Assembly (NCBI GenBank): GCA_020631975.1
Contig: JACKGO010000001.1
Location: 329,049-393,048 of the forward strand
Length of the DNA: 64,000 nucleotides
From: Candidatus Nomurabacteria bacterium
Lineage (GTDB): Bacteria > Patescibacteriota > Saccharimonadia > Saccharimonadales > CAIOMD01
Direction of reading: 5' to 3'
Shown one piece after another: positions 20,311-25,581 of the stretch. The notes beneath the pieces are model-generated. The model worked only from the letters and a program-made list of their open reading frames with translations. It ran no database searches and had not been told where the DNA came from. The position numbers and the translations under genes were made by a program. The first letter of the stretch is position 1. Each line of letters opens with the position of its first letter.

Positions 20311-20340
20311 CGTTATGTAATGATTTATCTCTAATTATTA

Positions 20341-20371
20341 TAAAAGGGCCCGTGCAATATGTCACGGACCC
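20341..20371 (-). terminator. Rho-independent terminator downstream of the ytxH-like gene
   Basis: The minus strand reads GGGTCCGTG-ACATATTG-CACGGGCCC (9-bp stem with 1 mismatch) followed by TTTTAT. Confidence 0.55.
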
Positions 20372-20395
20372 TAGTAAATTACACTACAGTCTTAT

Positions 20396-20803
20396 CTAAG
20401 ATTTTTTTAAATAATCTATGAGATGTTGCTTTGCTTCGCTCGCTTCGGTGAGAGCCTTGTGCAAATCTTTATCTTGCGCTTCGCCTTGTTTAACAGCCTG
20501 CAAGACATCTTTAGCTTTCGTCTGTGCGACTTTTGCTTTCCCTACTAGTTCATGAACTTCTTTTTTACCCTTGTCAGAATAATATTTTGCTTTTTGGGTA
20601 GCTTCTTCTATTACTACATTAAGTTCATCACGGGCTGCTTGTAATCGCTTGCCAGCTTCTGCCGCGTACTTATCGGCTTTATCTTTAATATCCTTGCGTG
20701 TTTCTTTACCACTTTTAGGAGCGGTGAGTATACCCGTTACGTACCCTGCAACTGCTCCAACTACGACAGCAGTAACTACGTTTTTGCCACTTGCTTTTGC
20801 CAT
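20396..20803 (-). CDS. YtxH domain-containing protein
   Basis: N-terminal GAVAGYVTGILTAPKSGKETRKDIKDKA, then a helical K/E-rich region. Confidence 0.75.
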   Translation of the reverse strand: MAKASGKNVVTAVVVGAVAGYVTGILTAPKSGKETRKDIKDKADKYAAEAGKRLQAARDELNVVIEEATQKAKYYSDKGKKEVHELVGKAKVAQTKAKDVLQAVKQGEAQDKDLHKALTEASEAKQHLIDYLKKS

Positions 20804-20806
20804 GAC

Positions 20807-21058
20807 TTAGTCCCCTTTCGATTGCTTATATTGTGAAACGACTTTCGTAACCATAGACATGACAGCAGTAGGCAGTGCAAACTGTCTTATCTTATCAGAA
20901 AAGCTGTCTATGTTGGTTACTATAGATTCGGCATGTTCGGTAATGACATCTATGCGTTTTAATACACGCACCATCAATACCCCTACGACAATAGCTATAA
21001 TCAAAAATATTGCGAGTGTGATTGAAAGTATAATGACTAAAATTTCAAATGCATCCAT
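20807..21058 (-). CDS. DUF948-like small membrane protein
   Basis: 83 aa with one N-terminal TM helix and then a helical region. It pairs with a YtxH gene, as in Firmicutes. Confidence 0.55.
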   Translation of the reverse strand: MDAFEILVIILSITLAIFLIIAIVVGVLMVRVLKRIDVITEHAESIVTNIDSFSDKIRQFALPTAVMSMVTKVVSQYKQSKGD

Positions 21059-21957: not shown

Positions 21958-23421
21958 TTACTTTACTCCGAGTTGCTTTTTAATCAGCTGCTGCACAATT
22001 GCTGGGTTGGCTTTGCCAGCACTCGCTTTCATTACTTGGCCCACCAAAAAGCCTATTGCCTTAAGTTCGCCATTTCGTACATCTAGTGCAGCTTTTTGGT
22101 TCTCTGCGAGCACTCGTTCAACAACTAATACGAGCTCTCCTTCGTCAGACACTTGCAACAAATCATGTTTTTTAGCAACTTCCATAGGTTCTGTATTGGT
22201 TGTAATCATCTCTGTTAGTATGCCCTTAGCGGCACTGCTGCTCACTTTGTTGTCATTTTGCATAGAAGCCAATGCAACAAGCAGGGGTACAGCCGATTGC
22301 ACTTGTAGCCATGTCATTTTATTGTCTGCCACGAGCTTGGTTATTTCGCCGACACACCAGTGGGCAATAGTTTTCGCTGTGAGTGTATCGTGCTGCTCAA
22401 TTGTCACTCGAACAATATTGGCAATGATTGGTAATTCTATAATGGTTGAAATTTGTGTCGTATCTAAACCAAGTTCACCAAATTGTTCGCGGAGTGCAGC
22501 AGGTAGTAACGGCATAGTTTGAGCTTCATAGCTAATTGCCTCTTGGCTGACTGTAATGGGTGGAATATCAGGATCAGGAAAATACCTATAGTCATGTGCA
22601 TCTTCTTTGCTCCGCTGAGATACCGTTTGTTGTGTATCATCATCCCATCCACGTGTTTCTTGTACAATAGACTGGCCTTTTTCTAGTAAGCGTATTTGCC
22701 GTTTTATTTCGTACTCAACTGCTTTTTCTACACTCTTAAAACTATTTAAGTTTTTCGTTTCACTTCTGGTGCCTAATTTTTTTGGATCAGTGCTAACACT
22801 TACGTTCACATCAAAACGCATGTTGCCATGATATAGGTCTACATCGGAAACATCAGCGTATTTCATCAGAAGATACAATTCATGCACATACGCACGAGCT
22901 TCCTCAGCAGAATGCATATCAGGTGCCGATACAATTTCTAGTAGTGGGGTACCTGCGCGATTAAGATCTACCAGACTGTAGGTTTCGCCAGTTGGATGGC
23001 TGCTTTTACCTGCATCTTCTTCTAAGTGTGCCCGCTCGATACCTACCGTGACATACGAGCCATCTAGCATTGGCGCTTCTACCGTGCCGTCTACTACTAT
23101 AGGTCGTTCATATTGTGTAATTTGATAACCTTTTGGCAAATCTGGGTAAAAATAATGTTTTCTGTCAAAGTGACTGGTTGGCGAAATAGTAGCGCGTAGA
23201 GCTAAGCCTGCCCTAATAGACAACGGTATCACTGCTGCATTTAGTACCGGTAATGTACCCGGCATACCAATACACAAAGGGCTAATGAGTGTATTAGGCG
23301 AAGCCTCACGGGCATCGTTGTCTACACCAGCAAATAGCTTCGTCTTTGTTTTTAATTGCACATGACACTCTATCCCTATCGTAGGATAGTAGCGATTTTG
23401 TACGAGGTATTTCTTGTCCAT
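21958..23421 (-). CDS. gatB: Asp/Glu-tRNA amidotransferase subunit B
   Basis: IGIECHVQL, DLNRAGTPLLEIV and a GatB/YqeY C-terminus; 487 aa. Confidence 0.95.
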   Translation of the reverse strand: MDKKYLVQNRYYPTIGIECHVQLKTKTKLFAGVDNDAREASPNTLISPLCIGMPGTLPVLNAAVIPLSIRAGLALRATISPTSHFDRKHYFYPDLPKGYQITQYERPIVVDGTVEAPMLDGSYVTVGIERAHLEEDAGKSSHPTGETYSLVDLNRAGTPLLEIVSAPDMHSAEEARAYVHELYLLMKYADVSDVDLYHGNMRFDVNVSVSTDPKKLGTRSETKNLNSFKSVEKAVEYEIKRQIRLLEKGQSIVQETRGWDDDTQQTVSQRSKEDAHDYRYFPDPDIPPITVSQEAISYEAQTMPLLPAALREQFGELGLDTTQISTIIELPIIANIVRVTIEQHDTLTAKTIAHWCVGEITKLVADNKMTWLQVQSAVPLLVALASMQNDNKVSSSAAKGILTEMITTNTEPMEVAKKHDLLQVSDEGELVLVVERVLAENQKAALDVRNGELKAIGFLVGQVMKASAGKANPAIVQQLIKKQLGVK

Positions 23422-23422
23422 G

Positions 23423-23830
23423 TTACCAAACCCCTAAGTCTTTAAATGTCTTGTGGTATGCACTTAATGCAGACTTCACTTGCTTTTCACTCGGCTCAAA
23501 TGCGGTTTCGTGTACAATTTTGTTTCGTAACTTATGTGCTGTCCATATATCATCACGGTGCCGTAGTGCATTTTTGCCAGCTATCAGCCTTTCTGCCATT
23601 GTTTCACCTTTGTAACCCAGGCCTTTTAAAGCTTCATCTAGGAGCTTGTCGGCATGCACAATACTTAATGGCCGAGATTTAGCATCTTTACTTAAAGCAA
23701 CAATATCATTCCATTCATTAATAAAATGCGCTTTATCTATCCCCTTTGTGCTGGGTTTTGCCACCAGGTTTAAAAGCACGAGTATCACTACAGCGACGAC
23801 AATAATGCCAATAATTACACCAATGCTCAT
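23423..23830 (-). CDS. Hypothetical membrane-anchored protein with RNxxxH (HEPN-like) motif, embedded in the gatCAB operon
   Basis: 135 aa with an N-terminal TM helix and R102-N-K-I-V-H107. Its ATG overlaps the gatA stop (ATGA at 23830..23827), GGAGAA lies 7 nt upstream, and its stop is 1 nt before the gatB ATG. Confidence 0.7.
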   Translation of the reverse strand: MSIGVIIGIIVVAVVILVLLNLVAKPSTKGIDKAHFINEWNDIVALSKDAKSRPLSIVHADKLLDEALKGLGYKGETMAERLIAGKNALRHRDDIWTAHKLRNKIVHETAFEPSEKQVKSALSAYHKTFKDLGVW

Positions 23831-25254
23831 AGTAATTTCTCCGTTGCCTGGGCAATTCCGAGCAGTTGCCGATCGTGCAGTTGTGGTGCCATAAACTGAA
23901 TACCAATTGGTAATTTATTCACCTCTCCAGCCGGGATACTAATCGCCGGAATACCAACAAGGTTGGCTGCCACAGTCATAATGTCTGCTAAATACATCTG
24001 CAATGGGTCACCTACATTTTGGCCAAGCTTAAAAGCGGTAAAAGGTGCTGTTGGGCCAACCAAAAAATCTACAGATGTAAATACTTCTGCAAATTCATTA
24101 ATGAGTTTGGTGCGAACAGTTTGAGCACGTTTGTAATATGCATCGTAGTAGCCACTTGAAAGCACGTAGGTACCAATCATTATTCGCCGCTTATTTTCTG
24201 CTTCAAAACCACGCTCTCTGGCAATTTCATATGATTCTTCTAAATCCTGTGCGTCTGATGCAGCTAAACCATAGCGCTGGCCATCATAACGGCTCAAATT
24301 ACTACTCACTTCTGCCGGAACAATAATGTAATAACACGCTAGAGCAAGATCAATAGAAGGTAGTGATACCTGTTTGATCTCTGCACCAGCAGATTCTAGT
24401 TTTTTTATAGTAGCGAGTGTCGCATTTTTAATATCCGAATCTATACCGTCAGCATAAAATTCTTTAATTACACCGATCTTTTTACCCTTGAGTGAACTGT
24501 CTAGCTTAGTGTAACTTGTGGTGTCTCGCTGTATTGTTGTACCATCAAGCGGGTCACGTCCGCTCATGACGTCGAGTACCAGTGCTGCATCCTCGCTTGT
24601 TCTTGTAAGAGGACCAATGACGTCAGTAGAACTTGCCATTGCTACCACACCAAATCTAGACACCAACCCATAGGTAGGTTTTAAACCAACAATTCCACAA
24701 AAACTAGCTGGCAGACGTATAGAGCCACCTGTATCTGTACCTAGTGCAAAGGGGGCAATGTTGAGCGCAACCGCAGCACCAGAACCACCGCTAGACCCAC
24801 CGGGCACCCGGCTCGTGTCTATAGGGTTTTTGGTTGGACCAAACGCGCTGTTTTCTGTGCTAGAACCATGCGCAAATGCATCAAGGTTAGCTTTGGCAAT
24901 AACTATTGCGCCTGCGGCTTCTAGCTTTTGTATCGCTGTAGCCTGAAACGGTGCTTCAAACGGTTCTAGTATGTGGCTCGCTGCAGTCGTTGGTGTACCA
25001 AGCGTTAAAAAATTATCTTTTGCCACAAACGGTATACCCGCAAGATCGCCAACAGATTTACCTGCTTTTATGTCTGCATCTATTTGGCTGGCACGCTTCA
25101 ACGCCCGTTCTTCTGGTATAGATAAAATAGCATTGTAGTCTTTAGTAGCCTTGGCTCTTTTAATAGCCTCTGTAACAAGGCTAACAGCAGACGTTTTGCC
25201 AGACTGTACAGAAGCAACCAATTCACGTATCGGCAACCACTGATCAAACATCAT
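23827..25254 (-). CDS. gatA: Glu-tRNA(Gln) amidotransferase subunit A
   Basis: Amidase signature GGSSGGSGAAVA; 475 aa. Confidence 0.95.
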   Translation of the reverse strand: MMFDQWLPIRELVASVQSGKTSAVSLVTEAIKRAKATKDYNAILSIPEERALKRASQIDADIKAGKSVGDLAGIPFVAKDNFLTLGTPTTAASHILEPFEAPFQATAIQKLEAAGAIVIAKANLDAFAHGSSTENSAFGPTKNPIDTSRVPGGSSGGSGAAVALNIAPFALGTDTGGSIRLPASFCGIVGLKPTYGLVSRFGVVAMASSTDVIGPLTRTSEDAALVLDVMSGRDPLDGTTIQRDTTSYTKLDSSLKGKKIGVIKEFYADGIDSDIKNATLATIKKLESAGAEIKQVSLPSIDLALACYYIIVPAEVSSNLSRYDGQRYGLAASDAQDLEESYEIARERGFEAENKRRIMIGTYVLSSGYYDAYYKRAQTVRTKLINEFAEVFTSVDFLVGPTAPFTAFKLGQNVGDPLQMYLADIMTVAANLVGIPAISIPAGEVNKLPIGIQFMAPQLHDRQLLGIAQATEKLL

Positions 25255-25544
25255 CCCACCATCCTTTTTACCTTAAACCGATGGTCTTTTACCGCTGGTG
25301 CATTGGCCAGTAAAGCGTCGCTACTTACACCATAGTCTATTTCTACGTCTTTTCGCACAACATTGGTAAGACCAGTCACCTGACTGGTTGGTTCTAGCCC
25401 TGTAATATCAACATCTTGCAGGCGTTCAACATAGCCTACTATAGCCGTCAACTCTTCTTTAAATTGTGCTACCTCTTTTTTGGTTAGCTGCAGCTTACTT
25501 AGTTTTGCCAGCTTAATAATGTCTTCGTCACTAAATGTACTCAT
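25251..25544 (-). CDS. gatC: Asp/Glu-tRNA amidotransferase subunit C
   Basis: GatC-like (IIKLAKLSKLQLTKKEV). ATG at 25544 preferred over the ORF-track 25565 because a -10 box sits 7 nt upstream. 4-nt overlap with gatA. Confidence 0.85.
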   Translation of the reverse strand: MSTFSDEDIIKLAKLSKLQLTKKEVAQFKEELTAIVGYVERLQDVDITGLEPTSQVTGLTNVVRKDVEIDYGVSSDALLANAPAVKDHRFKVKRMVG

Positions 25545-25551
25545 TGTATTA

Positions 25552-25581
25552 AGTATACGCACCAACAGCTGAATGCCTCAA
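25552..25581 (-). promoter_or_regulatory. Candidate gatC promoter giving a leaderless mRNA (-35 TTGAGG, 18 nt, -10 TATACT, 7 nt to ATG)
   Basis: On the minus strand TATACT is at 25557..25552 and TTGAGG at 25581..25576. There is no SD before ATG 25544. Confidence 0.45.

Follow-up and report, generated by a model that had tools for sequence, protein, structure and literature searches.

A small gene lying directly behind gatA, here called X, encodes what we read as a CPR-specific housekeeping protein of the HEPN type, tethered to the membrane and facing the cytoplasm, which would bind or cleave RNA as a partner of the amidotransferase GatCAB. We put the probability of this reading at roughly 0.45 and offer it as tentative. 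What is new is that a gatC-gatA-X module is conserved across CPR classes and that X, as a HEPN protein, has a housekeeping character. The gene was studied in a 64,000-nucleotide stretch of Candidatus Nomurabacteria DNA (the window), where the locus has the following features.

25251..25565, minus strand: gatC, 104 aa, TTG start, 4-nt overlap with gatA (TIGR00135, 71.7 bits)
23827..25254, minus strand: gatA, glutaminase subunit of 475 aa, with a TGA stop that overlaps the start of X (TIGR00132, 567 bits)
23837..23842, minus strand: GGAGAA Shine-Dalgarno of X, inside the 3' end of gatA and 6 nt before the ATG (sequence)
23423..23830, minus strand: X, 135 aa, ATG start (open reading frame list)
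23423..23830, minus strand: product of X, predicted to be a single-pass membrane protein with a cytoplasmic HEPN-fold domain (homologues, models, Foldseek)
23762..23824, minus strand: N-terminal TM helix of X, residues 3-23, predicted N-out/C-in (model helix, hydropathy 3.4)
23426..23746, minus strand: HEPN-like four-helix domain of X, residues 29-135 (models, Foldseek)
23636..23653, minus strand: A60-D61-K62-L63-L64-D65 of X, in helix 2, with D61 and D65 as invariant acidic residues (alignments)
23510..23527, minus strand: R102-N103-K-I-V-H107 (Rx4H) of X, at the C-terminal end of helix 3 (alignments, model)
21958..23421, minus strand: gatB, 487 aa, its ATG 1 nt past the stop of X (NF004012, 560 bits)

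An initial annotation of this DNA had described a 135-aa ORF between gatA and gatB, with an ATGA overlap, a GGAGAA Shine-Dalgarno, and a 1-nt gap to the gatB ATG. The ORF is real and all three junction elements can be read in the sequence; the strand, which the annotation omitted, is minus. In the reverse complement, the gatA/X junction reads ...CAACGGAGAAATTACTATGA..., the ATG of X (23830-23828) and the TGA of gatA (23829-23827) forming a 4-nt ATGA overlap, while at the other end the TAA of X (23425-23423) and the ATG of gatB (23421-23419) are separated by the single base 23422. The identities of gatC, gatA, and gatB came from NCBIfam equivalog models, against which all three products are full length in the window. 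The G+C content of X is the same as that of the adjoining genes, with no compositional anomaly. Inside the operon, a scan for promoters and terminators gave no signal above shuffled expectation, and the sole find of Rfam and tRNA scans across the window was a distant tRNA-Pro.

Past gatB and an NTP-transferase gene lie an 83-aa single-TM ORF (20807-21058, minus strand) and a 135-aa YtxH-like gene (20396-20803, minus strand), which recur downstream of the gat operon in 37/62 and 45/62 Saccharibacteria loci, respectively, and whose counterparts in Southlakia are non-essential in Tn-seq. Directly after the YtxH gene is a strong hairpin followed by a T-run (20337-20372, minus strand; a 10-bp stem with 7 GC pairs), and a sigma-70-like site matching at 11/12 positions (GTGACA-17-TATAAT) overlaps this terminator just upstream of dnaE. 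The two together suggest that the block running from uvrB through gatCA-X-B to YtxH may end there and that dnaE may have a promoter of its own.

Of 267 relatives, 255 have a single strongly hydrophobic segment. The N-terminal TM helix named in the initial annotation is borne out in the window protein, residues 5-23 having a Kyte-Doolittle value of 3.4 and being helical in the model. On average, the 15 residues after this helix held 3.85 lysines or arginines versus 0.06 before it, an excess that, by the positive-inside rule, places the globular domain in the cytoplasm.

The full-length AlphaFold2 model of X, built on a 44-sequence alignment, reached a pLDDT of 88.9, and that of the soluble domain (98 sequences) a pLDDT of 94.1 and a pTM of 0.86. 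The models show an up-down bundle of helices H1 (33-47), H2 (50-70), H3 (92-107), and H4 (115-132), with an insert between H2 and H3 (residues 71-91) that includes a short helix (78-84). In the published anatomy of HEPN domains, an Rx4-6H motif is found where helix 3 ends or the H3-H4 loop begins, helix 2 carries a conserved acidic residue, and an insert separates helices 2 and 3 (PMC3710099). All four published features are seen in the X model, namely the bundle, an Rx4H motif ending H3, D61 and D65 on H2, and the insert. Foldseek searches of the PDB returned HEPN proteins as 15/17 top matches to the full-length model and 17/17 to the soluble domain, among them AF_0298, HepT of MntA-HepT, TTHA/1wty, 4nqf, and ST0689, with Csm6 and AbiV lower down. 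Probabilities rose to 0.99 and query-normalised TM-scores ranged from 0.54 to 0.66, with E-values of just 0.1-1, so that these matches count as ranking evidence for HEPN rather than as formally significant. Matches of the model to a Foldseek viral library were weak and uninformative.

Profile searches of the window protein against Pfam and NCBIfam gave nothing usable. Among its relatives, HEPN_Swt1 was the commonest Pfam match (12/44 and 6/48 members, below threshold); the best match to this family (PF18731), with an E-value of 1.6e-4, spanned profile positions 19-113 of 115 and scored 22.4 bits, short of the 27.5-bit cutoff. Further sub-threshold matches of the relatives were to HEPN_RiboL-PSP, HEPN_Cthe2314, HEPN_DZIP3, HEPN_Apea, and Hypoth_Ymh, which we take to be a HEPN-related family. 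No match of the X family to a Pfam profile, whether from the window protein, the members, or the consensus, reached the curated threshold. DUF4145 (PF13643) gave no match to window X at E<=10 and was absent from the families listed for the member and consensus scans, a listing that for the two alignment scans covers the top 25 families.

One fold assignment is already known. The X ortholog of Southlakia epibionticum, SEML1_0535, has residues 26-135 placed by DPAM in ECOD e1wtyA1 with a score of 0.99 (PMC10633639 Table S2), an assignment that stands uncommented in this supplementary table. ProtNLM, which predicts names, calls the same protein a ‘DUF4145 domain-containing protein’ (PMC10633639 Table S2), and the main text of that paper mentions neither HEPN nor gat genes (PMC10633639). 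As judged from predicted structure, X is very probably a member of the HEPN superfamily, closest to the Swt1/Abi2 type, and the HEPN-like reading of the initial annotation is to that extent supported by a modelled four-helix bundle and by PDB matches that are nearly all HEPN. Four-helix bundles are a common fold, and X could instead be a generic helical bundle in which RNxxxH is a lineage-specific coincidence, with a role away from nucleic acids such as membrane organisation. All the HEPN matches do fall under formal significance, and PDB sequence searches with the X protein and the family profile returned no HEPN protein (RanGAP1 matches in such a search were weak and were rejected as spurious). 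Such a bundle is nonetheless very unlikely, since the position of the motif, the helix-2 acidic residues, the H2-H3 insert, the structural ranking, several HEPN Pfam families, and the published DPAM call all agree.

A hypothetical protein from a Candidatus Saccharibacteria MAG shares 99% identity with the window protein. Homologues of the window protein formed 148 clusters at 90% identity (E<=1e-3), and a HMMER search of 1.84 billion cluster representatives (50% identity) recovered 2106 relatives at E<=1e-3, with 378 remaining at E<=1e-10; with 148 and 2106 homologous clusters, the ORF is not a product of chance. Taking one genome per GTDB species, a relative was present in at least 582 genomes, and nearly all of the best 80 bore a Saccharibacteria or Saccharimonadia label. 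A second subfamily, distinguished by a longer N-terminus (165-200 aa), contributed 3150 additional clusters when its profile was searched; their named members are Parcubacteria/Paceibacteria (Portnoybacteria, Wolfebacteria, Liptonbacteria, and ‘Parcubacteria group’). The X family spans at least two major CPR groups. The full uvrB-gatC-gatA-X-gatB synteny of the Saccharibacteria type also appears on a contig labelled Woesebacteria (L066) and on another labelled Dormiibacterota (L078), which suggests that these MAG contigs are mislabelled or mis-binned.

Across 80 Saccharibacteria loci, which cover X identities of 32-68%, gatA was directly upstream in every case (80/80) and gatB directly downstream in 79/80; the lone exception, labelled Uhrbacteria, reads ligA-gatC-gatA-X-trxB. 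The gatA-X junction measured -4 or -1 nt in 60/80 loci and the X-gatB junction did so in 51/80, counts in which the choice of start codon favours small gaps. Flanking synteny was lower in the fully covered loci (uvrB upstream in 79%, the NTP-transferase gene downstream in 69%). General synteny is high in Saccharibacteria, so the fixed position of X there is partial evidence of shared function only. At two loci the neighbouring subunits were matched in part, GatA across residues 142-291 in L037 (CP064992.1; tblastn) and GatB across residues 24-238 in L027, for which frameshifts, assembly errors, or pseudogenes are possible.

In the long-N-terminus subfamily, gatA lay directly upstream of X in 73/80 metagenome loci, with gatC also visible in 39 of these. 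Truncated contigs account for four of the seven exceptions, leaving the pair intact in 73/76 assessable loci. Junctions between gatA and X were here mostly -20 to +28 nt. No gatB was found within 5-8 kb of X at any of the 80 loci, and the genes downstream of X varied, with no dominant family. In Wolfebacteria LCAK01000003.1 and Liptonbacteria MHLF01000028.1, for example, gatA and X of the gatC-gatA-X unit overlap by 4 nt, and gatB does not occur within 8 kb. Across this subfamily (L093-L174) the module often lies a few genes downstream of ligA. Adjacency in both subfamilies, with gatB elsewhere in one of them, indicates that the conserved unit is gatC-gatA-X and that Saccharibacteria keep gatB behind it. 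The initial description of X as inserted between gatA and gatB therefore holds for the window and for the 79 Saccharibacteria loci but not for the second subfamily, where gatB is not adjacent, and ‘coupled to gatA’ describes the gene better. The coupling to gatA that the initial annotation had claimed is conserved, -4 or -1 nt overlaps predominating. Going by gene arrangement, X is probably translationally coupled to gatA across deep CPR lineages, and the data show co-transcription of the two genes in these lineages to be obligatory.

True exceptions, with X away from gatA, were confined to three or four loci (L086, L149, and L160/L165). In L086, X is flanked on one side by an unannotated protein with a length of at least 426 aa and on the other by a fragment of a HerA/VirD4-like ATPase, and L160 and L165 have a common 508-aa gene downstream of X. 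Copies of this kind could be paralogs with another role.

Residues D61, D65, G75, W96, H99, R102, N103, and H107 were invariant in 98 sequences that cover both subfamilies down to ~30% identity, and R102-x4-H107 was invariant in both alignments A1 and A5. The stretch around the motif runs L101 R102 N103 K104 I105 V106 H107 E108, so the initial numbering of R102, N103, and H107 was correct, and the conservation of R and H, on which that annotation had let its HEPN reading depend, was found across the 98 sequences and, as an intact RNxxxH, in 361/384 relatives. The Rx4H site is, by the evidence of these alignments, under strong selection in most lineages. R and/or H have been lost in ~6% of relatives in several ways (AHNLCKKSIG, AHKLVNAIRQ, GHKLARQLQE, and others). 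These variants retain ADKLLD, G75, MGERL, and W-x-A-H, and all three that were looked up remain between gatA and gatB with overlapping junctions. Since they keep their operon position, catalysis by X is not universally required and some role outlasts loss of the site. One clade with a degenerate W-x-[AS]-H-N-L-x-K-K... motif comprises P0140, P0160, and P0190 (L089-L092), which have short extra C-terminal tails and lie between gatA and gatB, and the motif is also found in P0242 and P0267; further independent R/H losses differ from this clade in sequence.

The losses bear on a purely structural reading, in which X is a fourth component that tethers or scaffolds GatA or GatCAB at the membrane and RNxxxH serves binding or stability, not RNA cleavage. 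Several lineages lost R or H independently while keeping ADKLLD, G75, M78-E80-R81, W96-x-A-H99, and the place between gatA and gatB; translational coupling suggests matched stoichiometry; and non-catalytic HEPN domains exist, for example in Swt1 (PMC3710099). Against this, R, N, and H are invariant in ~94% of relatives across ~30% identity, the pattern expected of an active site, and GatA, GatB, and GatC are full length, leaving nothing for X to replace. We regard a purely structural role as unlikely.

A second alternative detaches X from GatCAB altogether. It would be a general membrane endoribonuclease, serving mRNA or rRNA turnover or the processing of its own operon transcript, and would lie behind gatA only for constitutive, matched expression. 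RNase Y offers a model, being a cytoplasmic RNase behind an N-terminal membrane anchor in a monoderm-type cell. X shares this architecture of anchor plus cytoplasmic domain; RNase Y differs in its unrelated KH/HD fold and co-occurs with X in Southlakia, whose genome encodes RNase Y and also RNase J. Because both enzymes are present, the idea that X substitutes for RNase Y was rejected. The general-RNase reading gains from the conserved RNase-type site, from this resemblance, from the few members found away from gatA, and from the habit of unrelated housekeeping genes in small genomes of sharing operons. It is weakened by the persistence of gatA-X adjacency over two deep CPR classes while the surroundings change, by the presence of RNase Y and RNase J already in Southlakia, and by motif-dead variants that hold their operon position. 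On balance it seems to us somewhat unlikely, and we keep to a GatCAB partner that binds or cleaves RNA as the preferred reading.

Fitness data come from Southlakia, where SEML1_0535 encodes 139 aa, with overlaps of 4 nt to gatA and 1 nt to gatB (PMC10633639 Table S1), in a locus whose synteny from uvrB to YtxH matches the window. The gene is flagged there as core and Patescibacteria-enriched, and its successive Tn-seq calls were GD, GD, and ES, with normalised reads falling from 127 to 5.9 to 2.8, whereas neutral genes nearby keep hundreds to thousands of reads (PMC10633639 Table S1). This depletion may be a polar effect on essential gatB; X is probably needed for growth. Among SEML1_0534-0537, the GatB and GatC families are also marked ‘Patescibacteria enriched’ and GatA is not (PMC10633639 Table S1), a hint that GatB and GatC have diverged far enough in CPR bacteria to count as families of their own; this divergence may be connected with the presence of X.

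In the PROKKA annotation of Southlakia, the word ‘asparagine’ is absent and ‘glutamine’ occurs only in a release-factor methyltransferase (PMC10633639 Table S1), and the best matches of its AspRS are non-discriminating enzymes. With apparently no AsnRS or GlnRS annotated, GatCAB looks to be the sole route to Asn-tRNA and Gln-tRNA and hence indispensable.

X occupies a fixed position in hundreds of species genomes as a single-copy gene, and the data show it to be fitness-relevant, non-mobile, and single-copy. It adjoins gatA and gatB both in the window and at 79/80 Saccharibacteria loci, with no MNT or other antitoxin gene beside it; PADLOC defence models gave no relevant match to X, and no relatives were found in 2.9 million viral contigs. 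These results bear on the toxin-like option raised in the initial annotation, taken here to mean a HEPN RNase from an abortive-infection or toxin-antitoxin system that has come to lie in the gat operon by chance. Toxins and defence effectors make up most of the characterised prokaryotic HEPN proteins (PMC3710099), and HepT toxins are the best structural matches of X. A toxin is disfavoured by the missing antitoxin partner, defence-model match, and viral copies in a gene that is single-copy in minimal genomes, as well as by its fixed position and by Tn-seq insertions that are depleted, not neutral. We hold this origin to be extremely improbable.

Comparison with HepT/MntA (DUF86 HEPN-MNT) shows what X shares with such toxins and what it lacks. 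The closest solved structures to X belong here (7bxo, 8xeh, 8xdj, and 7ae6/7ae8; TM-score 0.58-0.66), with an Rx4H-type site, but X lacks an MNT partner, gives no indication of mobility or toxicity, is membrane anchored, and is just 11-16% identical. One HepT was reportedly found by Songailiene in 2020 to cut tRNA acceptor ends. With the HEPN_Swt1/Abi2-like clade (PF18731), X has in common the four-helix up-down bundle, RNxxxH ending helix 3, the helix-2 acidic residue, and the H2-H3 insert; it differs in falling below the gathering threshold and in being a stand-alone 110-aa domain behind a TM helix. The settings of Swt1/Abi2-like HEPN domains are restriction-modification, Abi, and PIN fusions, whereas that of X is a housekeeping operon.

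Membrane-associated bacterial HEPN proteins have been described, comprising DUF4145 proteins with a WP-signature TM segment and STY4199-type Abi2/Swt1 HEPN domains behind a TM helix (PMC3710099, Anantharaman et al. 2013), and were proposed to act on RNA at the inner membrane face (PMC3710099). X resembles them in having a TM segment and a cytoplasmic, apparently active HEPN domain, and differs in that it has no WP signature and, in Saccharibacteria, no extra N-terminal globular domain. Additions to the amidotransferase have precedents of other kinds. Mycobacterium carries pfkA between gatA and gatB, functionally unrelated to the amidotransferase; it is likewise an extra gene in the AdT operon, but is neither a HEPN nor a membrane protein. 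Yeast GatF replaces GatC (PMC4027206). It is a precedent for a lineage-specific GatAB-associated addition and, unlike X, is neither HEPN nor a membrane protein. In the literature searched there was no paper linking a HEPN protein to GatCAB and no prior description of X, and the 2013 HEPN survey mentions amidotransferases 0 times (PMC3710099).

Under the preferred reading, X would be produced in step with GatA and would act with GatCAB at the inner face of the membrane, possibly in physical association with it. Metal-independent endoribonuclease activity, usually of a dimer with a composite site, is characteristic of the HEPN superfamily. The ligand of X would be RNA, most plausibly tRNA, which X may cleave in most lineages, with Rx4H providing either catalysis or phosphate binding. 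A second conserved surface (ADKLLD / G-x-x-M-x-E-R-L / W-x-A-H) could give a motif-independent role. A stronger form of this proposal makes X a fourth component of CPR transamidation, namely a HEPN RNase, anchored in the membrane and co-translated with GatA, by which GatCAB is docked there; taken this far, we think the proposal quite doubtful.

What is known of HEPN RNases concerns almost exclusively toxins, defence effectors, and eukaryotic RNA-processing enzymes, whereas X is a fixed, single-copy housekeeping gene, strongly depleted in the only CPR bacterium for which Tn-seq data are available. Since Southlakia epibionticum takes up DNA by natural transformation, the role of X is directly testable. 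If our reading is true, one ‘Patescibacteria-enriched’ family of unknown function gains a role. Because Asn-tRNA and Gln-tRNA are apparently made through GatCAB alone, an RNA-directed partner tethered to the membrane would extend a core translation pathway in a lineage-specific way, and were X indeed a fourth component, a fold usual in toxins would serve as an essential translation-fidelity factor where the indirect pathway is wholly relied on.
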